Positions 464 through 32,406 are shown, counted from the first letter of the stretch. The stretch: DNA of 64,000 bases from GCF_988243305.1 NZ_OZ547136.1; one strand, 5' to 3'. Numbers and translations: made by a program. The notes: a model not told the origin generated them from the letters alone.

Positions 464-2773
464 ATGGAGTTATGGATATTTATAGTAGCTATTTATTTGA
501 TTTATATTCTTTTTTTCAAAAAGAAGAAAACTAAGTCCGCGGGCTCTTATACTTCCGCTCCTGTGAAAGCACCACCTAAAGAATGGCTTGCTAACAACAA
601 AAAAAATCAGTCTGTAATGCAAAACGAGGACAGCGAAGATGACAATCTGGCTACGTTTACACTAAGTGGCGGGCGGAATGTCGAATACAGCATAACAGCC
701 ACTCAACGCCAGAATTTCTCAAAAACTACCGGTGCTTTGGCTCGTTGGATTTTTCCGGGAGAGATGATCACAATCAGTGGGATAGAGGTTACCGGCGGTC
801 ACTTCTATCTTGGGCAGCGTATGAAACCTGCCGGGCATAACTCAGGCGGTTATTATGATGGCAATAACGAGGCATCGCTAGTTGACGACACGCTTAAAAT
901 ATACCCCACACCTTACATTTACGAAGATAGTTCATTAGGGTATTGGCCCAGTTTTTCCTCACTTTCACCTGAAGCTCGTGGTGCGTACCTGAGTTGGCTT
1001 GCCAGCGACAGATGCGACACTTCCTGCCCAATTGGTTACGTTTTCATTTATCTGTATGGTCTGGAAAGAAGGGCGCTTGTTGACAGCAGGGACAACAATA
1101 TATCCGACGATGAGTTCTATTCTCTTTTCAAAGAGATCTGCCGTCTCAGATCGGTTTTCAATGAAAACCGATCTTTCCGGAATTACTCATCCCAGTTACT
1201 TGAAGCGATGTCCATTCTTCGTCTGAACGAAAATCTTGCAGCAGCTCTCAACGATGATTCGGAGTTCAGCAATAGCATGCAGTTCAGGTTAATCCTGGCA
1301 AAGACTGTTGATACAGGAGCCCCGGTTCCAGCGGATCTGGCTCTGACGTGGGTGACAAACCATGCTGAATACTCATTACGAACCCCCGCCCGCCGCTGTG
1401 CGAAAGAATTTGCTGCACTATTTAAACGGCGTTACACCCTTAAATACGGTGAAGGGATGGTAGTGAAGCCGAATAAAGCGCGTCTGCGTTTAGATTACAC
1501 GCCTGCAAGTCCCAGTTTGCGAGGTATTCGGCTTCCTGTTCCCGACTTGCCTGATCCAGGTGCATTGAAAGGCCCTGTTCAGAAGCTTATGGCCATTGCC
1601 GATATATGCACAGGTGAACTGGATGCTTACAGTCGTTACCTTGGTAGAAAAGGTACTTCAGCAAATGATACCGCTGCAATTTTGTTGCTGCCTTCAGAAA
1701 TCGTTAACGAAAGCGCAGAAAAAATATTAAGTACATTCAAACACTGGGCTGATGACGCAATCCGCAGTAAGGGTGGGATAGTTTCAGTTGCTGACTACTG
1801 GTCACATATGAATGCCACCTGTCCGGCGAAGATCAATAAAAAAGAGGCCGACTTAATGCAAGCCTTTGCACAGAAAATGGGATACTGTCTGGCTCCTGAC
1901 CCCTATCACCACCACGTAAAGGCAGATGTCGATGGTGTACTTGTTTTATTCCCTGCTGGTGAAAGAGGACGTTTCTCACCTTCTCCTGAATTTATCACAG
2001 CTGTATTGACGCTCCGATTAGGTTCGGTAGTCGCCTTGATTGACAATTCTCTCGATCAAGCCGAACAGAAAGTGCTTGAGAATGCCATCAACAACAATGC
2101 CAGCTTCAGCGATGATGAAAAGCGCTCTCTGCACGCATATTTAACGTGGCAGCTTCATACTCCGGCGAATATGACGGGAATGAAAAGCCGGATTGAATTA
2201 CTCGGTGCAGCGGAAAAATCAGCTGTGGGTAAGGTTATCGTTAGTGTCGCTTGCTCTGACGGCAGAATTACGCCTGCCGAAATCAAACAGCTTGAGAAGA
2301 TTTATACAAGCCTGGGACTGGATCCCTCATCCGTATCAAGCAATATCCATCAGCATTCCGCAACTGAAACTGCTCTCGTTTCATCTGTACCAGCTAATCA
2401 GTCGACGGCAGGATTTACGCTGGATGCCAACGTACTTGCCCGCCACGAATCTGCCACTGATGATGTTCGTAAATTACTGAACTCAATTTTCACTGAAGAA
2501 GAACCAGAACAACCAGAAAGCGCTCCAGCCTCATTAACCGGGGAAGGGGGACTTGACTCCGCTCATAGCCAACTTTATCGCAGGTTGCTGGAGAAAGAAC
2601 AATGGTCCAGAAAAGAGGCGACAGAGTTGTGTAGTAACTGGAACCTGATGCTCGGCGGTGCGCTTGAGGTGATTAACGATTGGTCCTATGCGGTGGTTGA
2701 TGCACCAGTGCTGGAAGATGCTGATGATCACATTTGGATTGACCTGGAAATAGCCAAAGAATTAGAGGGTTAG
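464..2773 (+). CDS. Membrane-anchored TerB-domain protein (TerB plus TerB-C-like C-terminus); SngA-like component of a Shango-type defense operon
   Basis: 769-aa ORF; N-terminal hydrophobic helix (LWIFIVAIYLIYILFF); TerB-like motif VACSDGRITPAEIKQLEKIYTSLGLD; 3-bp gap to next gene. Confidence 0.7.
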   Translation: MELWIFIVAIYLIYILFFKKKKTKSAGSYTSAPVKAPPKEWLANNKKNQSVMQNEDSEDDNLATFTLSGGRNVEYSITATQRQNFSKTTGALARWIFPGEMITISGIEVTGGHFYLGQRMKPAGHNSGGYYDGNNEASLVDDTLKIYPTPYIYEDSSLGYWPSFSSLSPEARGAYLSWLASDRCDTSCPIGYVFIYLYGLERRALVDSRDNNISDDEFYSLFKEICRLRSVFNENRSFRNYSSQLLEAMSILRLNENLAAALNDDSEFSNSMQFRLILAKTVDTGAPVPADLALTWVTNHAEYSLRTPARRCAKEFAALFKRRYTLKYGEGMVVKPNKARLRLDYTPASPSLRGIRLPVPDLPDPGALKGPVQKLMAIADICTGELDAYSRYLGRKGTSANDTAAILLLPSEIVNESAEKILSTFKHWADDAIRSKGGIVSVADYWSHMNATCPAKINKKEADLMQAFAQKMGYCLAPDPYHHHVKADVDGVLVLFPAGERGRFSPSPEFITAVLTLRLGSVVALIDNSLDQAEQKVLENAINNNASFSDDEKRSLHAYLTWQLHTPANMTGMKSRIELLGAAEKSAVGKVIVSVACSDGRITPAEIKQLEKIYTSLGLDPSSVSSNIHQHSATETALVSSVPANQSTAGFTLDANVLARHESATDDVRKLLNSIFTEEEPEQPESAPASLTGEGGLDSAHSQLYRRLLEKEQWSRKEATELCSNWNLMLGGALEVINDWSYAVVDAPVLEDADDHIWIDLEIAKELEG

Positions 2774-2776
2774 TGA

Positions 2777-4093
2777 ATGTCTGTAACACGTATAAGAGTG
2801 AAAGAGCGCGACGCTATCATTCAGTCACTTAAGTCGGGAGTAACGCCAAGAATAGGTATTCAGCATATCCAGGTTGGCCGCGTGAATGAGATAACCGCCC
2901 TCCATCAGGATATTGAACGGATTGCTGATGGCGGGGCAAGCTTCAGACTTATCATTGGTGAGTACGGTTCCGGGAAAACATTCTTTTTAAGTGTTGTACG
3001 GTCTATTGCGTTAGAGAAGAAGCTGGTCACGGTCAGTGCAGACCTTTCTCCCGACAGACGTATCCACTCATCGGGAGGTCAGGCTCGTAATCTCTACTCA
3101 GAGCTTATGAAAAATATGTCCACCAGAAACAAACCAGATGGCAATGCATTACTTAGCGTTGTGGAAAGGTTTGTTACTGAGGCAAGGAAGGAAGCTGATG
3201 CGAACGGCTCCCTGGTCTCATCCGTTATTCATAAACGCCTTGCTGCTTTGTCAGATATGGTGGGAGGATATGACTTTGCGAAGGTCATTGACGCATTCTG
3301 GCGCGGGCATGAGCAGGATAACGAAACCTTAAAATCCAATGCTATTCGCTGGTTGCGGGGCGAGTACACCACAAAAACTGATGCCCGTAATGATCTTGAC
3401 GTCCGAACGATTATCTCAGACGCCTCGTTCTATGATTCTTTGAAGTTGATGAGCCTTTTTGTCCGTCAGGCAGGCTATGCCGGACTTTTAGTTAGCCTCG
3501 ACGAGATGGTGAACCTCTTCAAGTTGAATAATACGCAAGCGAGAACGGCCAACTACGAACAAATTTTGCGGATCCTGAATGACTGCCTGCAAGGCTCCGC
3601 TGAAAATATTGGTTTTATCCTCGGGGGGACGCCAGAATTTCTTTTCGATCCACGTAAGGGGCTCTACAGCTATGAAGCGCTCCAGTCGCGTCTGGCAGAA
3701 AACCGATTCGCACAGAAAGCTGGCGTGATTGACTACTCGTCCCCCACGCTGCATCTTGCCAGCCTCACTCCTGAGGAACTGTATATTTTACTGAAAAACC
3801 TTCGTCATGTTTATGCTGGTGGAGATCCCGCAAATTATCTGGTGCCAGATGATGCTCTGACCGGGTTTCTGCATCACTGCAGCAAAACCATCGGAGATGC
3901 TTACTTTCGAACTCCCCGCAATACCATAAAAGGTTTTCTGGATATGCTGGCTGTGCTGGAACAAAACAGAACGATGAACTGGCAAACCCTCATTGAGGGG
4001 GTGGCGATTGAAGAAGACAAGCTCAGCGATATGGATGATGCCATTGTGGAGGAAAGTGATGACGATGATGGCCTGGCGAATTTCAGATTATGA
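2777..4093 (+). CDS. P-loop ATPase (DUF2791/BrxC-like), SngB-like
   Basis: 438-aa ORF with Walker A GEYGSGKT; stop overlaps start of the helicase gene (ATGA at 4090). Confidence 0.7.
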   Translation: MSVTRIRVKERDAIIQSLKSGVTPRIGIQHIQVGRVNEITALHQDIERIADGGASFRLIIGEYGSGKTFFLSVVRSIALEKKLVTVSADLSPDRRIHSSGGQARNLYSELMKNMSTRNKPDGNALLSVVERFVTEARKEADANGSLVSSVIHKRLAALSDMVGGYDFAKVIDAFWRGHEQDNETLKSNAIRWLRGEYTTKTDARNDLDVRTIISDASFYDSLKLMSLFVRQAGYAGLLVSLDEMVNLFKLNNTQARTANYEQILRILNDCLQGSAENIGFILGGTPEFLFDPRKGLYSYEALQSRLAENRFAQKAGVIDYSSPTLHLASLTPEELYILLKNLRHVYAGGDPANYLVPDDALTGFLHHCSKTIGDAYFRTPRNTIKGFLDMLAVLEQNRTMNWQTLIEGVAIEEDKLSDMDDAIVEESDDDDGLANFRL

Positions 4094-6288
4094 GTAGTGC
4101 CTACAATAGTCTTGATCCCCGTGTCCGTAAGTGGGTTTATAAGCAGGGCTGGTCATCCTTAAGGCCCTTGCAGGAAAGCTCTATTCCGGCAATTTTAGCC
4201 CGTGATCGTGATGTACTAATTAGTGCAGGTACAGCTGCGGGTAAAACAGAGGCTTTCTTTCTTCCTGCCTGTTCAGCGATTGCAGATCTCACTGGTGGAT
4301 TTGGCATTATCTATATCAGTCCATTGAAGGCATTAATTAACGATCAACACCGTCGTCTTGAGAGTCTTGGTGAAGCCCTGGAAATGCAAGTGACGCCCTG
4401 GCACGGGGATGTACCACAAAGCAAAAAGAAGAAAGCACGGACAACCCCTTCTGGCATCTTACTTATCACACCTGAATCACTTGAGTCTTTGCTCATAAAC
4501 TCATTGGGTTGGCTCAAACAGGCGTTTTCTTCTGTGGCATACATTGTTATTGATGAGTTCCATGCTTTTATTGGCTCAGAGCGTGGTATACAGCTGCTTT
4601 CTCTGCTTAACAGAATTGACCATGTGCTGGGACGCCAGTTGAATCCAGTTCCCCGTGTCGCGTTGAGTGCCACGCTGGGAGAGCTGGAAAAAGTACCAGA
4701 ACTATTGCGCCCGGATAAGAGATTACCTTGTGAAACGGTAACAGACAGTAATAGCAAAGCCACACTACAGGTTCAGGTTAAAGGTTATCTTGAGCGGGTG
4801 CCCGAAAAAGGAGAAGAGCTCCAGAGCTCTGCTGAACAGCTCGTCTGCGCGGATATTTTCAGGCTCTGCCGTGGCGATTCCCACCTGGTCTTTGCTAACA
4901 GTCGAAAGCGTACTGAAAGCATAGCGGCAACACTGAGCGACATGTGTGAAGCAAATGTCGTTCCTAATGAATTCTTTCCTCATCATGGTTCCCTTGCAAG
5001 GGAGTTGCGTGAGGCGCTTGAAGCCCGACTGCAGAAAGGGAATTTGCCCACAACCGCTGTTTGTACAATGACGCTGGAGCTGGGTATTGATATTGGTAAG
5101 GTGCAGTCTGTCATACAAGTGACACCTCCGCATTCTGTTTCCAGTCTGCGTCAACGCATGGGACGTTCAGGGCGGCGCGATTCCCCATCGGTGCTGAGAA
5201 TGTTAATTACTGAACCTGAACTTACCGCAACCAGCAGCATTGTGGATCATTTACGGCTGCAGTTGGTTCAGGCGATGGCAATGATCAGGTTGATGATCTC
5301 TAAGCGCTGGTTCGAGCCTGCAGATATCCGGCAGAAACATTACTCCACACTACTACACCAGATCCTGGCTATTACTGCGCAATGGGGAGGTGTTCGTGCC
5401 GATCAGCTCTGGTCACAACTTTGCCAGACAGGTCCGTTCCGGAATGTGGATATAAATGACTTCAAAAGTCTGCTTAAACATATGGGGACATGTGGCCTGC
5501 TCACTCAACTAACCAGCGGTGAAATAGTTGTCGGGGCTGAGGGGGAGAAGCTGACTAATCACTACACGTTTTATGCCGTATTCAATACACCTGAGGAGTT
5601 TCGCATTGTAACGGGAAACCGAACTCTTGGCACAGTGCCTGTAGACTCCCCACTTTTGCCGGAGCAGCACATCATCTTCGGCGGACGGCGCTGGAAAGTG
5701 ACAGAGATCGAGGTTGAAAAAAAGGTTATCTATGTTGAGACGACTAAAGGCGGTCAGCCGCCACTATTCAGTGGTACCGGGATGTCTGTTCATGATGTTG
5801 TTCGCCAGGAAATGCTCACTATCTACAGGGAAAATGATTACCGTATCGCGGTAGGCAACAAGAGAGTCGATTATGCTGATGCCGCAGCCAGAAGCCTCTT
5901 CGCGGAAGGAAGTGACAACTTCCAACGCTACAATCTACAAAATGACTGTTTTATTGCCAGTGGTCAGAACTGCTACGTGATCCCGTGGATGGGGGATAAA
6001 ATTGTCAATACAATTACGTCCCTGATTATACGTTGTGGCTTTAAAGCCAGTTCATTTGCAGGTGTGATAGAGGTAGAGGACTCAGGCGTTGCCTCTGTCC
6101 AGCGTGCACTTAAGAAAATGCTATTGTCGGGGCTACCTTCAGAGTTTGAGCTTGCTGCAGTTGTTCCCGACAAGTATCTGGATAAATATGACGAGTATTT
6201 ACCAGAGACTTTGCTTGCTAAAGGGTATGGGGCACAGGCGTATGATATAGAAGGAACGTGCATCTGGCTGCAGAAACACCTTCAGTAG
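4090..6288 (+). CDS. DEAD/DEAH-box superfamily-2 helicase with C-terminal extension (DUF1998-like), SngC-like
   Basis: 732-aa ORF; motif I GTAAGKTEAF, motif II VIDEFHAF; third gene of overlapping operon. Confidence 0.75.
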   Translation: MSSAYNSLDPRVRKWVYKQGWSSLRPLQESSIPAILARDRDVLISAGTAAGKTEAFFLPACSAIADLTGGFGIIYISPLKALINDQHRRLESLGEALEMQVTPWHGDVPQSKKKKARTTPSGILLITPESLESLLINSLGWLKQAFSSVAYIVIDEFHAFIGSERGIQLLSLLNRIDHVLGRQLNPVPRVALSATLGELEKVPELLRPDKRLPCETVTDSNSKATLQVQVKGYLERVPEKGEELQSSAEQLVCADIFRLCRGDSHLVFANSRKRTESIAATLSDMCEANVVPNEFFPHHGSLARELREALEARLQKGNLPTTAVCTMTLELGIDIGKVQSVIQVTPPHSVSSLRQRMGRSGRRDSPSVLRMLITEPELTATSSIVDHLRLQLVQAMAMIRLMISKRWFEPADIRQKHYSTLLHQILAITAQWGGVRADQLWSQLCQTGPFRNVDINDFKSLLKHMGTCGLLTQLTSGEIVVGAEGEKLTNHYTFYAVFNTPEEFRIVTGNRTLGTVPVDSPLLPEQHIIFGGRRWKVTEIEVEKKVIYVETTKGGQPPLFSGTGMSVHDVVRQEMLTIYRENDYRIAVGNKRVDYADAAARSLFAEGSDNFQRYNLQNDCFIASGQNCYVIPWMGDKIVNTITSLIIRCGFKASSFAGVIEVEDSGVASVQRALKKMLLSGLPSEFELAAVVPDKYLDKYDEYLPETLLAKGYGAQAYDIEGTCIWLQKHLQ

Positions 6289-6302
6289 ACTGGATATGTA
6301 GT

Positions 6303-6340
6303 CAGGGTATAAATAAGTATTTATACCCTTATTTTTTACT
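6303..6340 (+). terminator. Rho-independent terminator after the helicase gene
   Basis: Hairpin AGGGTATAAATA-ag-TATTTATACCCT followed by TATTTTTT, 15 bp after stop codon at 6286-6288. Confidence 0.6.
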
Positions 6341-6659
6341 TACCTGTGGACTTACTTGGCTTTAATCCCGGAGTATTGCCAGGAGTATCTTTATTATCGC
6401 GTCGGCGTTGATCCGGTTTTCCTGTTGACTTAGCAATTGGTTTTGGACCTGGTTTTAGACCCATGATAGTTATCCTTCGAGATGTAAGAGGAATGCCCTC
6501 AACATTGGTATATTCTATACTGAGAAATTTTTCAATGGGAATGTTCAACGGCCGAATGATTAACTCGATATTGTGAGCAATGTCTTTTTTTGGCACAGAG
6601 CGAACCGTTAGATTGCGCGTATTTTTATGGAAGGAGATCATCCAATAACGGTTATTCAC
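6336..6659 (-). CDS. Hypothetical protein, Lys/Pro/Gly-rich C-terminus; last gene of the ParB/PAPS-reductase operon
   Basis: 107-aa ORF; N-terminal peptide MISFHKNT shared with the ORF starting at 11417; no recognisable domain. Confidence 0.35.
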   Translation of the reverse strand: MNNRYWMISFHKNTRNLTVRSVPKKDIAHNIELIIRPLNIPIEKFLSIEYTNVEGIPLTSRRITIMGLKPGPKPIAKSTGKPDQRRRDNKDTPGNTPGLKPSKSTGK

Positions 6660-6723
6660 CGTTCTCCTTTATGGTAATACGAACCTGTTTTTTTAATATA
6701 TAGAAAAATTACTCCGACATGTT

Positions 6724-7368
6724 TTATCTTTTTGAAATCAGGACATTTACCAACTCACTTAAAACTCTCTTTTGTTCTTCATCCTGAAGATATTGAATCC
6801 GGAATTTAATCTCTTCTGCAACCCGCCTTGTATCGGACTCATTAAGTATTTTTGTTATTCGCTGTCTCTGATGTTCAGGCTGGTCTTCCATATTTCGTAA
6901 AACCAGATGAAATAATATATCATAAAGTGCGCAATGCCATGAATAACCATCATTGGTTAGAATAAGCTCCCAAACCCGCTCCTGTTCGGCAATAAGCTGC
7001 AGAACAAAGGATTCAACCTGTTCTGATTGTCCGGGGACAACCCGGTATAGCGGCGCAATCACAGCAAAAAACAGTTCATTTAGCCAGGATTCCGCCTCTT
7101 TCTCGCTCCTGAAAGATGGACAGTTCTGTATTCTTCGTTCGTATTCACGGGTAACCTGCTCCGGAATATCCTCCGGCGGTGTCAGCCACTTATTCCTGAG
7201 CAATATACTGGTTGACGGATGGCAGCAGGCTATTTCAGCAATAATTTCACGTAATGCCTCCGGGCTGAATTTCTTCAGCTGATTGTAGTGCTCCCGGGTA
7301 AAACCATGATCATCGCATAAAAGTTGCCATGTCATTGATATACTGTTTGCCATTCCTTTCTTCATCAT
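6724..7368 (-). CDS. Hypothetical protein (214 aa), operon partner of ParB-like/PAPS-reductase-like genes
   Basis: Intact ORF 20 bp downstream of preceding gene on same strand; no recognised domain. Confidence 0.5.
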   Translation of the reverse strand: MMKKGMANSISMTWQLLCDDHGFTREHYNQLKKFSPEALREIIAEIACCHPSTSILLRNKWLTPPEDIPEQVTREYERRIQNCPSFRSEKEAESWLNELFFAVIAPLYRVVPGQSEQVESFVLQLIAEQERVWELILTNDGYSWHCALYDILFHLVLRNMEDQPEHQRQRITKILNESDTRRVAEEIKFRIQYLQDEEQKRVLSELVNVLISKR

Positions 7369-7388
7369 TAATACCTGTTACCTGAATA

Positions 7389-7697
7389 TCAACAGACCGG
7401 TGTACCTTTTCTGAATACCTCCCCGGACGGACTGGCAATCCCCATTCGCCTCAGCGTGGCATCTGCAGCTTTCGCCACTTCGCTGATATCCAGCTTTTCA
7501 GGTAGCGGCGGGGACGATATCTGCGCCAGACAATAATTCCTGCGCAACAACAACCACTCCCGTTGTGCTTCTGTACATTCAACATTTCCCATAACAAAAA
7601 GCCAGCGGGCGGAAGCTCTGCGCCAGCAACCCGCAGCCTCCAGCTTCTGTGCAACCATGTCTTCCACGACTTCCGGGGTACTCTTTTTCCTGCTCAA
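7389..7697 (-). CDS. Hypothetical small protein (102 aa)
   Basis: ORF 39 bp downstream of ParB-like gene, same strand; no recognised domain. Confidence 0.45.
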   Translation of the reverse strand: MSRKKSTPEVVEDMVAQKLEAAGCWRRASARWLFVMGNVECTEAQREWLLLRRNYCLAQISSPPLPEKLDISEVAKAADATLRRMGIASPSGEVFRKGTPVC

Positions 7698-7736
7698 AAC
7701 ATTAACTCACTGAAATAATATACATATATGACGGTC

Positions 7737-8375
7737 TCAGCGAACCGTCCATGCCGGACTGAAATCCTCTTCCAGAAACAGCTCCGTCAGCCCGCTAATC
7801 TGTTTCAACCTGAGAACTTCATCCTGGTCCATACCCAGCTCCGTACCAATACGTTCATCCGTCCAGCCCAGCCGCGACAGGTCCCTGACAATATCAGACA
7901 TTGAAGTTATCTGGTGCTTCCCCCTGGCCCGGTTATGTCTAATGGTTGCAGCAATACGTGAGGCCTGTCCCTTTCTTTCCGGATTAATACAGGTCACTGG
8001 CAACCAGCCCTTCAGGCGTTTTCCCGTACCTGCTTCCCTGCCCAGTAATTGACGATGAAAACCATCCACGACCAGATAATGCTCCTTCTCTTCCGAGACA
8101 ACCACAGGCTGCGTGAACCCATCCTGCTCCAGTGAATGTTTCAGCAGTTTCTTCTCACCCGGCGCCATGACATTGGGGTTATAATCGTTGGCCACCACCT
8201 CATCTGCTTTCACCCACAGCACACAGTCCACAGGCTCCTGTGCAAATGGACTGACCTCATGAAGCACCCTGCGCAGATGATTCAGGGCCTGTATGGCCTC
8301 TTCTTCTGGTCGTTCCTGGCTGAAGTACTGACGAATCATGTTGCTCAGTATCTCCGGTGTCACAGAATCCCCCAT
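7737..8375 (-). CDS. ParB/Srx-like nuclease-domain protein (IbrB/YbdM family)
   Basis: 212-aa ORF with ParB-like core (YLVVDGFHR); overlaps upstream PAPS-reductase-like gene by 16 nt. Confidence 0.8.
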   Translation of the reverse strand: MGDSVTPEILSNMIRQYFSQERPEEEAIQALNHLRRVLHEVSPFAQEPVDCVLWVKADEVVANDYNPNVMAPGEKKLLKHSLEQDGFTQPVVVSEEKEHYLVVDGFHRQLLGREAGTGKRLKGWLPVTCINPERKGQASRIAATIRHNRARGKHQITSMSDIVRDLSRLGWTDERIGTELGMDQDEVLRLKQISGLTELFLEEDFSPAWTVR

Positions 8376-9592
8376 TCCTTCCTCCTTTCTTTCATACGCT
8401 GCAGATAACGTTCATAGTGCCGGGGTTTGTTCGGACTGAAGGAGAGGGTACGGCACCAGAAATCATTCTTTATAAGTGTCTTACAGATACGCCGCCAGGA
8501 CGGAATATCCCGGCTCCCCAGGTCATTCTCCTGTTCATCCGGGATGTCATCCGGGAAGCCCCGCGTCTGATACCAGCGCAGGTAGACAGCAATTTTATTA
8601 CGGTAATGTTCTGCCGTTCTTTCCGGCATCACATCCAGCAGGAACATCGCATAGCTGCGCCAGGTATGATGGGCTGGTTTTGATATACGTTTACGCAGGG
8701 CAAAATAGGCACCGCTTTCATTGGCATAAAGCGCCCCGCTGGCAGCGCCTGACACCCGCTCACACATCCTGGCCCAGGTTTCCGGTTCCAGAACATGGTA
8801 AAGCCACAGTCCCTTACGTTGTTCAGGACCAAAAGGTTCACAGACACGCATGTTGCGTAACGGTACGCCGGCACGGTACATCAGATCATACAGGGGATTG
8901 TAGATGGCACGGGTTCTGGTGTGATATATCCAGATATCACGAGTTTTCCAGTCATACAGCGGATACATAGTGTAGTAAAACCCTTCAGGCGATGCCGTGG
9001 TCCAAGGCTTATCATCGGCATATCTCAGTTTGCGCTGGGACACCAGTCCCATAAAGCGGTTGAGGGATTCATCCGCCCGAACACCGGTCAGCACTGCCAC
9101 TCCACACCGGTTGCCAGCAAACCAGGAAGAAAATGCCGGAACAAATTCTTCAAACGTCATGGCATACCGGTAAAAGGGAAAATACGCCATATCCGTAATG
9201 GCCTCTTCCGGTGGCTGGCGAACCCAGGTCACACGAGGCTCCCAGCATATCCACTCCGGTTGAAACTGCGAGACACCGTTTACCGTGGTCAGGGGAAGCG
9301 CCACCCAGTAAAAGGTTTCCGTCACATCATGGTACATTTCCCGCATCTTCTGAATATGTTCAATGGTGCACTGGTACTGAGCCTCCCAGTCAATGAACAG
9401 TACAGAGAAACGACGTCTTTTCCTGCGGGCCACATCAGCCACAAGATGGAAAAGCACGGTGGAATCTTTACCACCGGAAAAAGAGAGACAAACTGATGGA
9501 AATGTTTCAAAAATCCACTCAATACGAGCAATTGCTGCACGCAGAACATTCTCTCCAGTAAGGACTTTCTCCGTTAAAAAATTATCATTCAT
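8360..9592 (-). CDS. PAPS reductase-like / adenine nucleotide alpha-hydrolase protein (IbrA/YbdN family, DndC-like fold)
   Basis: 410-aa ORF with PP-loop SFSGGKDS near N-terminus; translationally coupled to the ParB-like gene. Confidence 0.8.
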   Translation of the reverse strand: MNDNFLTEKVLTGENVLRAAIARIEWIFETFPSVCLSFSGGKDSTVLFHLVADVARRKRRRFSVLFIDWEAQYQCTIEHIQKMREMYHDVTETFYWVALPLTTVNGVSQFQPEWICWEPRVTWVRQPPEEAITDMAYFPFYRYAMTFEEFVPAFSSWFAGNRCGVAVLTGVRADESLNRFMGLVSQRKLRYADDKPWTTASPEGFYYTMYPLYDWKTRDIWIYHTRTRAIYNPLYDLMYRAGVPLRNMRVCEPFGPEQRKGLWLYHVLEPETWARMCERVSGAASGALYANESGAYFALRKRISKPAHHTWRSYAMFLLDVMPERTAEHYRNKIAVYLRWYQTRGFPDDIPDEQENDLGSRDIPSWRRICKTLIKNDFWCRTLSFSPNKPRHYERYLQRMKERRKEWGIL

Positions 9593-9732
9593 TTATTTTT
9601 ACTTTATGCAAAAGAAACCTGTTTATGCTTTCAACATATAGCAACAAACATTAAATGACGTTTAATTAGCCACTACTAAAATTGCTTACTTTCATCCTGA
9701 TGAACATATAAAACATATTACAAACATATTTA

Positions 9733-30603: not shown

Positions 30604-32406
30604 GTGCGCCGTGACTGGCGCTGTTCTTCAACTGTGGTGGCAGAAGAACGACTAAGAGGTGAAAGTCCTCCACACACCCGGTGAGGGGAAGTGTTAGCGG
30701 AAGGCAAGGGTGTTCATCGCGAGGTGAAATCTGAAGGAAGCTGGATGCAAAATGCTGGCCTGACGAACAGGAAGCGGTTAAGTCGGCGCAGCAGGGTAAG
30801 GTGGCACAAATCACCAAAGCCCGATACTCACACGGAACGCTGTGACGTAAAGCCGACAGGCATAAGCAGGAAAGTCGCGTGAATTACCCCGGGAGATCTG
30901 TCGCCCTGCCAGTGTGCTACCGGCGCCGTGAGGCGCCGGGATGGGGCGGCAGAAGTCAGCCGACGCCGTAGTAGTGCTGCAAAACCGGCAGCATGAAGGG
31001 CCGAACATGATTAACTGTGATTAGGACATCCGAACCCGATGATGATTAATGAAGCACAAGCGCAGGCAACTGCGACCAGCGGCAGAGGAGACGGACAGTA
31101 TCCGTCAGGGCTGCATGATGGCGCTGAAATCAGCACGGCGGCGGGTGGGCAAACGAAAGCGGAAGTGCCGCTGACGATGGAAGCGGTGATAACGAGAGAA
31201 AACCTGATGCTGGCTTATCAGCGCGTGGTGGAAAACAAAGGCACGGCGGGGGTGGATAACCTCAGCGTGGCGGAGTTGAAACCGTGGCTGAAGAAGAACT
31301 GGCGCAGCGTCAGGCAGGCATTGATTGACGGAAACTACCAGCCGCGGGCAATACGCCGGATGGATATCCCGAAGCCGCATGGCGGCGTGAGAACCTCAGG
31401 CATCCCGACGGTGGTGGACAGGCTTATCCAGCAGGCGGTGCAACAGGCACAGCGTTACATACGGGGTGGCAAACGGTGGGTGGTGGATATGGATCTGGAG
31501 AAGTTCTTCGACCGTGTGGATCACAGACTCCTGATGACGCGTCTGGCCAGAACGATAAAGGACAGGCGGGTGCTGTGACTGATACGCCGCTACCTGAAAG
31601 CGGAAATGGTTAAAGACGGGCAAAGGGAGAAACGGCAGGCGGGCATGCTGCAGGGCGGCCCACTGTCGCCGTTACTGTCGAACATCCTGCTGGATGAACT
31701 GGATAAAGAACTGGAGCGTCGTGGACACAGCTTCTGCCGCTACGCAGACGACTGCAACATCTACGTAAGCAGCCGGAAAGCGGGCGACCATCTGCTGAAG
31801 AACATCAGGGCGTTCGTGGAGAACAAACTGAAGGTGAATGAGAAGAAGAGCGCGGTGGCGCGCCCGTGGGATCGGAAGTTCCTCGGGTACAGTGTGACAT
31901 GGCACAAACAGGCGAAGCTGAAGATAGCCCTGACGAGCGTGAACAGGCTGAAGGAGAAAGTCCACAGTCTGACGACGGGAAACCGGAGCAAATCAGTGAA
32001 AGCGACAATCAATGCTCTGACACCAGTGCTGTGTGGATGGATAAGCTACTTCAGGCTGACGGAAGTCAGAGGAGTGCTGGAGGAGCTGGATGGCTGGATC
32101 AAACGGAAACTGCGTTGCTTGTTGTAGCGGCAGTGGAAGAGACCGCTAACCCGGGCAAAGAACCTGCAAAGAGCAGGACTGAGTAAGGACAGGGCAATGA
32201 TCTCTGCGTACAACAACCACGGGCCATGGTGGAACTCAGGGTCAAGCCATATGAATCAGGCGATAAAGAATACATGGTTCAGGAGGCAGGGTCTGATATC
32301 ACTGCTGGAACAGTAGAGGCAGTTCCAGAGTTAACATGAACCGCCGTATGCGGAACCGCACGTACGGTGGTGTGAGAGGACGGCGGGAGTGATCCCGCCT
32401 CCTACT
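30604..32406 (+). mobile_element. Group II intron (bacterial class C-like, inserted just downstream of a terminator hairpin), degenerate
   Basis: 5' end GTGCG at 30604; domain V-like hairpin at ~32341-32372; internal RT/maturase ORF; 3' boundary approximate. Confidence 0.7.
31039..32316 (+). pseudogene. Group II intron reverse transcriptase/maturase with two in-frame stop codons and an internal deletion
   Basis: RT motifs (LEKFFDRVDH, QGGPLSPLLSNILLD, YADD); in-frame TGA at 31576-31578 and TAG at 32125-32127 with homology continuing downstream (GPWWNSGSSHMN); ~30 aa missing after LIQQAV. Confidence 0.75.

Follow-up and report, generated by a model that had tools for sequence, protein, structure and literature searches.

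According to PMC7649339, the IbrA and IbrB proteins of Escherichia coli activate prophage eib genes (Sandt et al. 2002, as cited there), and they are treated in that literature as co-activators of prophage gene expression. A related pair in E. coli K-12, ybdN-ybdM, is repressed by YbdO/CitR. Here we analysed an ibrA-ibrB locus in a stretch of 64,000 nucleotides from GCF_988243305.1 (NZ_OZ547136.1), which is called the window throughout. The original prediction for this locus, made from the sequence alone, was a new five-gene system of defence or DNA modification. It was found instead that the five open reading frames (ORFs) comprise a known ibrA-ibrB pair, already named in 2002, a gene for a PerC regulator, a gene for a helical protein (ORF4), and a fifth ORF that sequence comparison places with the adjacent Shango block. 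The locus thus represents the known ibrAB family in a common E. coli island; it consists of three separate evolutionary layers, not of one system, and the five genes are not an evolutionary unit. In our best reading, to which we give a probability of roughly 0.55, it is a mobile regulatory cassette on a genomic island that switches on horizontally acquired genes.

Pairing and distribution of ibrA and ibrB

An exhaustive search with IbrA gave 1866 clusters at 50% identity, 325 of which matched at E ≤ 1e-30. By a species-level scan, in which one genome per species was used, 80 IbrA loci were obtained from Enterobacteriaceae, Lentisphaerae, Bacteroidota, Firmicutes, Alphaproteobacteria and Verrucomicrobia and from two metagenome-assembled genomes of Asgard archaea. 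In 77 of these loci the gene directly after IbrA, on the same strand, encoded an IbrB homologue, mostly overlapping IbrA or separated from it by at most about 15 nt, and the three loci without IbrB were short contigs or contig ends. Matches to IbrA were also found in 224 phage records (Flavobacterium, Mycobacterium, Streptococcus and others), and the copy carried by an E. coli phage was 91% identical. Both phage loci inspected, those of E. coli phage PhiR5_2 and Streptococcus phage PY1, contained an overlapping IbrB/ParB-like gene after ibrA. Viral carriers of ibrAB included phages of Firmicutes, phages of Bacteroidota and an Asgard archaeal virus. These results showed that the two genes form an ancient bicistron, with obligate pairing and a largely viral distribution, that is carried on phages, prophages and islands. 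Of the 80 species loci, 16 had a gene for a phage-type DNA helicase just upstream of ibrA, as did the Streptococcus phage; the frequency of this neighbourhood points to DNA as the target of IbrAB.

The five same-strand ORFs expected in the window, the first with the PP-loop SFSGGKDS, were confirmed by ORF calls and by Pfam matches of that first ORF to PAPS_reduct and DUF3440. The second ORF was ParB-like as proposed (PHROG 2159, E = 1e-81), its reading frame overlapping that of ibrA by 16 nt, and the assignment of the pair to the IbrA/IbrB type held as well. Enterobacterial loci of ∼60% identity shared a syntenic core context of their own, which includes a LysR gene and is the ybdNM type; the window copy is therefore an accessory ibrAB paralogue and not the core ybdNM.

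Sequence and structural features of IbrA and IbrB

IbrA matched PAPS_reduct in two segments, DUF3440 at E = 1.5e-24 and PHROG 2302 at E = 3e-83. Across 31 diverse homologues the PP-loop SGGKDS (G41, K42, D43, S44) and the residues D68, E70, R172, E175, S176, D219, Y235, R249 and R279 were invariant, and the RxDES motif was retained. An invariant cysteine was absent among the same 31 sequences; C251 was present in 21 of them, and the commonest cysteine column of the alignment is an alanine in the window protein. The dN/dS of ibrA was 0.07–0.11, indicating strong purifying selection. In the AlphaFold2 model (pLDDT 87.5) the N-terminal ∼250 amino acids (aa) superposed on CysH, APS reductase, the PAPS domain of FAD synthase, CysD, TtuA and LarE. 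The best structural matches were PAPS/APS reductases and FAD synthase, and the tRNA thiolases TtuA and NcsA also matched. The structure search gave no solved structure covering DUF3440, and comparison of IbrA, IbrB and ORF4 with PDB sequences yielded marginal matches only.

The curated cut-offs were widely missed by IbrA. It scored 36.8 against a cut-off of 154 bits for the CysH model NF002537, 35.4 against 254 bits for the CysH model TIGR02057, and 15 against 290 bits for the DndC model TIGR03183. When the five proteins were checked against PADLOC-DB v2, IbrB, PerC, ORF4 and ORF5 gave no match, and IbrA gave weak matches only: DndC at E = 1e-4 without a significant stretch, and BrxP at E = 7e-8 (29 bits) over residues 20–98, the PP-loop segment. 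The analogy to DndC drawn in the original prediction could thus not be upheld. Given these missed cut-offs together with the PP-loop fold, IbrA is predicted to be a PP-loop adenylating enzyme; because its family lacks an invariant cysteine, it is probably neither a sulfonucleotide reductase nor a DndC-type Fe-S enzyme or sulfurtransferase.

IbrB, named 'IbrB-like domain-containing protein' by RefSeq, matched Pfam ParB_N only at E = 0.013. In 78 IbrB homologues the motifs NxYNPN, DGFHR, TIRHNRARGxH and GMxxDExLRLKQ were at least 85% conserved and largely invariant. The first three correspond to nucleotide-site positions of the ParB/Srx fold, and the C-terminal GMxxDExLRLKQ segment matched a helix-turn-helix (HTH) regulator profile. 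The dN/dS of ibrB was 0.05–0.08, again indicating strong purifying selection.

The structural matches of IbrA to TtuA and NcsA, together with a weak TilS N-terminal match, would agree with an enzyme that modifies tRNA like TtcA, TtuA or TilS and raises the translation of foreign genes, IbrB being the subunit that gives specificity or regulation. Genes for tRNA modification are frequent in phages, and Sandt et al. (2002) reportedly measured the activation of Eib expression at the protein level. However, the ParB-type and HTH-like motifs of IbrB are typical of DNA binders, no conserved cysteine or Fe-S site for thiolation was seen in IbrA, and tRNA enzymes are not its best structural matches. 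We consider this explanation improbable.

The perC-ORF4 extension in E. coli

Of the three downstream ORFs that had been described as uncharacterised partners without recognisable domains, the 102-aa ORF matched Pfam PerC (PF06069) at E = 6e-36 over model positions 2–89 of 90, which is the full length, and it is annotated by RefSeq as PerC family; its dN/dS was 0.12–0.15. One of the supposed partners is thus a PerC regulator. For ORF4 and ORF5 no match was obtained in Pfam, NCBIfam, PHROGs or PADLOC. Identity of the linked PerC with pchE was rejected, as pchE sits behind two small ORFs, ECs1586 and ECs1587.

Prevalence was counted in 5426 complete E. coli genomes at ≥80% query coverage with megablast sensitivity. 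ibrAB was present in 2010 genomes, the window perC allele in 1037 and ORF4 in 1037; perC and ORF4 were contiguous in 1033. The whole four-gene stretch ibrAB-perC-ORF4 was found in 969 genomes, i.e. in 969 of the 2010 that were ibrAB-positive. Homologues of PerC, ORF4 and ORF5 were found in none of the 80 species-level IbrA loci. Co-conservation of the downstream genes with the pair therefore failed between species, and within E. coli it was borne out for perC-ORF4 only.

Nested forms with five, four, three or two genes were observed in a spread sample of the E. coli matches. The four-gene form occurred in O157, O111 and O145 loci, where the megablast match spanned query positions 685–3637 (window 6684–9636). 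The three-gene form ibrAB-perC was seen, for example, adjoining cas3, and ibrAB alone, for example, near cobUST in clone D i14. The four-gene block was flanked in at least three different ways, with flush boundaries each time; the contexts included a POTRA / AAA_11-12 helicase island (O157-type) and an integrase/TraI context resembling an integrative and conjugative element (Escherichia sp.). These observations showed that ibrA-ibrB-perC-ORF4 is a four-gene block that moves between islands as a unit. In the window, the gap between ibrB and perC is 39 nt (78 nt with the NCBI start codon ATG at 7658), followed by gaps of 20 nt and 64 nt, and the G+C content falls from ∼0.52 over ibrAB to ∼0.40–0.42 over ORF4 and ORF5. 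As a separate observation, the O157-type islands (L014–L017; L016 2021–4189) carried upstream of the block a POTRA_2/3 protein gene, a 171-aa ORF and a gene for an AAA_11/AAA_12 helicase of 722–893 aa with DUF2726. This arrangement may represent an uncharacterised defence-like pair.

All 40 detectable ORF4 homologues with a source name were from Escherichia (53–100% identity). The dN/dS of ORF4 was 0.20–0.39, including 0.20–0.25 at dS > 1, and its length was kept, so that ORF4 is judged to be a real gene. Its structural model (pLDDT 77) exhibited eleven helices and matched alpha-solenoid/HEAT-like proteins only; these matches were generic, and no function was drawn from them. The residues H27, C49, H50 and C83 were invariant in this otherwise fast-evolving helical protein, which suggests a structural metal site. 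The name SpnT was not transferred to ORF4, although the top AFDB50 match, a 96%-identical UniProt entry, is called 'SpnT protein'. The spnT phenotypes of E. coli 4972 (PMC11064533) were likewise not transferred, for the spnT primers of that study are absent from the window.

Decay of the block, leaving island cargo without current function, was considered. The surrounding island is annotated with numerous pseudogenes and with remnants of a type VI secretion system (T6SS). At locus L009 an intact VasL gene is followed by a truncated ibrB and then by perC and ORF4, ibrA being deleted, and this locus is a deletion derivative. In some O157-type copies (L014, L015 and L017) a frameshift splits ibrA, or ibrA is missing from the gene calls. 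However, all four genes are intact in the window and are under purifying selection (dN/dS 0.05–0.39), the block is kept in 969 genomes in several contexts, and induction on host-cell contact was reported in Shiga toxin-producing E. coli (STEC) (PMC7649339). Decay is accordingly the least likely of the explanations weighed here, and a highly improbable one.

The fifth ORF and the Shango side

ORF5 had been proposed as a gene of 107 aa. Among its homologues only the last 42 residues (codons at 6336–6464) were common, starting at an internal methionine with its own AGGA ribosome-binding site. The N-terminal extension was out of frame and contained a stop in the 91%-identical allele of E. coli C9, whereas the 42-codon micro-ORF differed from that allele by 10 synonymous and 0 non-synonymous changes. 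The dN/dS of the micro-ORF was 0.06 against Vibrio and 0.01 against Klebsiella, indicating strong purifying selection, and its matches reached Klebsiella, Raoultella, Vibrio, Pseudomonas and Xanthomonas. Its product is basic and proline-rich, and one homologue carries Pfam PF28031.

The DNA of ORF5 was found in 706 of the 5426 E. coli genomes. The micro-ORF was located ∼50 nt after sngC in E. coli C9, from which ibrAB is absent, and 50–60 nt after sngC in a Salmonella IncFIB plasmid with the order sngB, sngC, micro-ORF. A truncated sngC adjoined it in the Klebsiella IncFII plasmid pBK32179. Both plasmid loci were without ibrAB. By tblastn it was detected in 1424 plasmid records, chiefly of Klebsiella and 694 of them at ≥99% identity, where it usually has no annotated feature. 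It was also found in defence-gene islands of Klebsiella, Pseudomonas, Vibrio and Xanthomonas without adjacent Shango. As the micro-ORF travels with sngC in the absence of ibrAB, the junction between the Shango side and the ibr cassette is placed at about window 6600–6684. These comparisons place the micro-ORF in the block on the Shango side and outside the ibr cassette; it could encode a factor associated with Shango, or it could be an island gene in its own right. The hairpin at 6304–6329 (AGGGTATAAATAAGTATTTATACCCT) is terminator-like, with a T tail on the + strand, and was kept together with the sngC/micro-ORF block in loci L108 and L118; it is likely to be a bidirectional terminator. The unannotated 42-aa micro-gene adjoining sngC may matter for Shango biology.

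These results bear on the proposal that IbrA (DndC-like) and IbrB (DndB/ParB-like) mark host DNA in a novel multi-gene anti-phage defence or a modification system of restriction-modification (R-M) type, with the downstream genes as effectors or sensors. The PP-loop plus ParB-like pairing recalls DndC/DndB, SspD and BrxP, and the weak PADLOC matches of IbrA point the same way. The predicted setting, a defence-rich island with convergent Shango and a nearby NERD helicase, was found in the window, where SngA, SngB and SngC and a NERD+UvrD protein were matched, and other ibrAB copies adjoin cas3, a type I R-M system or a DUF2726 AAA_11/12 helicase. Nevertheless, the five genes occur together in none of the 80 species loci, the fifth going with sngC, and megablast detected no perC-ORF4 in roughly half of the E. 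coli genomes with ibrAB. Neither nucleases nor effectors are recognisable among the products of the downstream genes, which include a regulator (PerC) and a helical repeat protein (ORF4); ORF5 is foreign to the cassette. The score against DndC and the lack of a conserved cysteine in the IbrA family also speak against the proposal, and no dndA, dndD, dndE, sspABC or pglZ was seen among the annotated island genes. Moreover, the paralogue ybdNM has a core-genome context, and the ibrAB pair is common in phages themselves. The specific support for a defence role is limited to the neighbourhood, and such a role is very unlikely.

Proposed role of the cassette

By RNA-seq of two STEC strains, ibrB, perC and the next hypothetical gene, which have consecutive locus tags, were found to be up-regulated after 3 h on epithelial cells (PMC7649339). 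This joint up-regulation fits co-transcription of the cassette. The Eib proteins belong to the YadA-family class of trimeric autotransporter adhesins. In E. coli C10 (L113 1473–7066) and C11, ibrAB-perC is located directly upstream of genes for a YadA-family trimeric autotransporter (1002 aa in C10) and an OmpA/TpgA-like protein. In strain 32F4 (L114) a YadA-like gene is near ibrAB-perC, with a fragment of the insertion sequence IS110 and an HTH gene in between. The arrangement in C10 and C11 is a physical link of the ibr cassette to the adhesin class that it reportedly activates.

In the regulatory cassette that we favour, IbrAB would carry out a DNA-directed enzymatic step. IbrB would bind DNA via its HTH segment, its conserved ParB/Srx nucleotide motifs (DGFHR, RHNRARG) acting as an NTP-dependent switch, and would recruit IbrA, which as a PP-loop enzyme would adenylate a DNA-associated substrate. 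The action of IbrA might change the DNA, or a DNA-bound factor, at foreign promoters, so that silencing is relieved. PerC would contribute conventional transcription activation and E. coli-specific control, and ORF4 is probably a protein-binding adaptor. The way in which DpdB assists DpdA offers a possible working analogy for IbrB helping IbrA.

Several observations weigh against this reading. The adjacency to YadA-family genes was seen in only about 6 genomes, with an IS3 fragment between perC and the adhesin gene. The DNA upstream of ibrA is unrelated between contexts past ∼45 nt and a conserved promoter was not found in it, so that co-regulation must be context-specific. Co-transcription of the four genes in the window strain is a prediction only. 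ORF4 copies of 54–57% identity were found directly after intact ImpA_N/VasL genes in L005 and L008 without ibrAB or perC; ORF4 is therefore not strictly dependent on ibrAB, and it may originally have been a T6SS-border gene that merely hitch-hiked. The island context (Shango and the NERD helicase here, cas3 and type I R-M elsewhere) is compatible with a role in defence or counter-defence. We found no paper assigning a reaction to IbrA or IbrB and no experiment or solved structure giving either protein a chemical function. In this respect the original prediction, which held that the family has no established function, was right for the biochemistry; it overlooked a published genetic phenotype, the activation of eib cited in PMC7649339, which rests on one 2002 paper.

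A different account takes IbrAB as a DNA modification or anti-restriction module by which mobile elements protect or mark their own DNA, gene activation being a side effect and perC-ORF4 unrelated cargo. In its favour, ibrAB neighbours genes for helicases and replication in phages and prophages, and it obligately pairs two proteins that look like enzymes and whose motifs, of active-site type, are invariant. A precedent exists in the ParB-like ATPase DpdB, which assists the DNA-modifying DpdA (PMC12839542). On the other hand, no modification by IbrAB has been reported in the literature, the core copy ybdNM is under repression by a LysR regulator and has links to regulation of a metabolism type, and the near-perfect linkage of perC-ORF4, which follows ibrAB in 969 genomes, speaks for a functional tie to regulation. 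We regard this account as doubtful, with a better claim than those involving tRNA, defence or decay.

We also put forward, as a speculative and rather unlikely extension, that IbrA and IbrB together form a previously undescribed, NTP-driven module of viral origin that modifies nucleic acids with two enzymes, a DNA-loading subunit of ParB/Srx type and a PP-loop adenylating enzyme that works without cysteine. The mark left on DNA would lift xenogeneic silencing or shield the DNA of the element, and in Escherichia the module would have become coupled to a PerC activator and to an adaptor of alpha-solenoid type for the control of adhesins encoded on islands. The near one-to-one linkage of perC and ORF4 defines the four-gene cassette, which may control adhesin and virulence genes of E. 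coli.

Genomic setting

Many complete E. coli chromosomes, FDAARGOS_448 among them, matched the window region 6000–10000 at 100% identity, and the region was present in full in 488 of the 5426 complete genomes. In FDAARGOS_448 the island starts with a tRNA-Phe gene (pheU) and an integrase gene directly past dsbD and dicD, and ends ahead of cadC. The features are listed in Table 1. The 235-aa ORF upstream of ibrA had no match in any profile library and is outside the conserved four-gene block; it was rejected as a relative of ORF4, as no similarity was found between them. An Rfam scan of 5800–10600 gave no match. The remnants of a T6SS cluster edge span window 9733–14022 on the - strand and include the NERD+UvrD helicase gene. 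In other strains the NERD helicase gene was observed between TssE and intact ImpA_N/VasL, within a complete T6SS cluster. In the gap between grpO and grpP, at window ∼31800–32320 on the + strand (L115 1801–2322), two genes are inserted, one for a short 'reverse transcriptase domain-containing protein' of 173 aa and one for a hypothetical protein of 179 aa.

Table 1. Features of the locus and of the surrounding island (window coordinates)
Feature	Position	Strand	Description
Shango sngABC	464–6288	+	SngA E = 6e-100, SngB E = 9e-187, SngC E = 4e-278
Hairpin	6304–6329		11-bp stem; between the convergent stop codons of sngC and the micro-ORF
Micro-ORF	6336–6464	-	42 aa, MGLKPGPKPIAKSTGKPDQRRRDNKDTPGNTPGLKPSKSTGK; sole conserved portion of ORF5
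ORF5 as first read	6336–6659	-	107 aa, over-extended
Conserved ibrA-ibrB-perC-ORF4 block	6684–9636		Limits common to O157-type islands; flanks differ
ORF4	6724–7368	-	214 aa; all-alpha, Escherichia-restricted, tightly linked to perC
PerC-family regulator gene (perC)	7389–7697	-	102 aa from TTG; RefSeq: ATG 7658, 89 aa
ibrB	7737–8375	-	212 aa; ParB/Srx-like N-terminal domain, C-terminal HTH-like segment
ibrA	8360–9592	-	410 aa; PP-loop PAPS_reduct N-terminal domain, DUF3440 C-terminal domain
235-aa ORF (RefSeq: 214 aa)	9733–10440	-	Directly upstream of ibrA; 34% G+C stretch
T6SS ImpA_N/VasL gene fragments	10494–11841	-	
VasL-domain ORF	10494–11417	-	Annotated POTRA pseudogene fragment inside; T6SS cluster-edge remnant
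ImpA_N fragment	11401–11841	-	T6SS cluster-edge remnant
NERD+UvrD helicase	12235–14022	-	PADLOC candidate C3a187, E = 9e-139
grp glycyl-radical propanediol microcompartment cluster			Island cargo
Phosphoethanolamine transferase gene			Island cargo (FDAARGOS_448 annotation)
CP4-like island end			Antirestriction gene and YeeU/CbtA pair

Comparison with known systems

Among the systems of DNA modification and defence, DndC/DndB, SspD and BrxP share with IbrA the PP-loop PAPS-reductase fold, combined in Dnd with a ParB-superfamily protein, and the setting in defence islands. DndC and BrxP differ from IbrA in that its scores to them are far below the cut-offs, it has no conserved cysteine pair or Fe-S site, and its C-terminal DUF3440 domain is different. 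The cysteine desulfurase, DndD/E, PglZ and DUF4007 partners of Dnd and type 4 BREX were not seen among the annotated genes of the island, and the BrxD-like protein near ibrAB is SngB of Shango. The DpdA/DpdB system resembles the pair in that a ParB-like NTPase is the obligatory partner of a DNA-modifying enzyme (PMC12839542). DpdA, however, is a transglycosylase, unlike the PP-loop protein IbrA; the two systems are unrelated in sequence, and the preQ0 pathway genes are absent at the window locus. The 'NAP + PAPS reductase (+Arc, ParBc)' clusters of the PANGU preprint were rejected as counterparts, being centred on a YejK-like nucleoid-associated protein (NAP) that is absent at the window locus.

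The 102-aa ORF is a full-length PF06069 member like the PerC/Pch proteins of enteropathogenic and enterohaemorrhagic E. coli, and the Pch genes are likewise found on prophage-like elements; unlike those genes, the window perC allele is tied to ibrAB and ORF4. ORF4 was also compared with the Serratia SpnT of TnTIR, the ORF4 homologues that carry a source name being all from Escherichia.

YbdN/YbdM of K-12 is the same two-domain pair in the same overlapping gene order (L047 and other enterobacterial loci). Its identity to the window pair is ∼60%, and it is fixed in the core genome with a LysR gene, in contrast to the window copy, an accessory pair borne by islands or phages. The closest relatives are IbrA/IbrB of E. 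coli ECOR-9 and O157:H7, which belong to the same family and have the same architecture, i.e. a PAPS_reduct plus DUF3440 protein followed by an overlapping IbrB-like ParB gene. The O157-type copy has ∼95% amino-acid identity to the window copy and also has perC and ORF4 behind it. The window copy differs from roughly half of the ibrAB copies in E. coli, such as the cobUST-linked one of clone D i14, which are without perC-ORF4. The name IbrA/IbrB is used for pairs of the window type by both RefSeq and SEED. The locus itself is ordinary, and its interest lies in the reaction of a strictly conserved, enzyme-like IbrAB pair. From the known IbrA/IbrB the window pair shows no difference in kind; its copy is the one at the pheU tRNA-Phe island, between Shango and the T6SS remnants.

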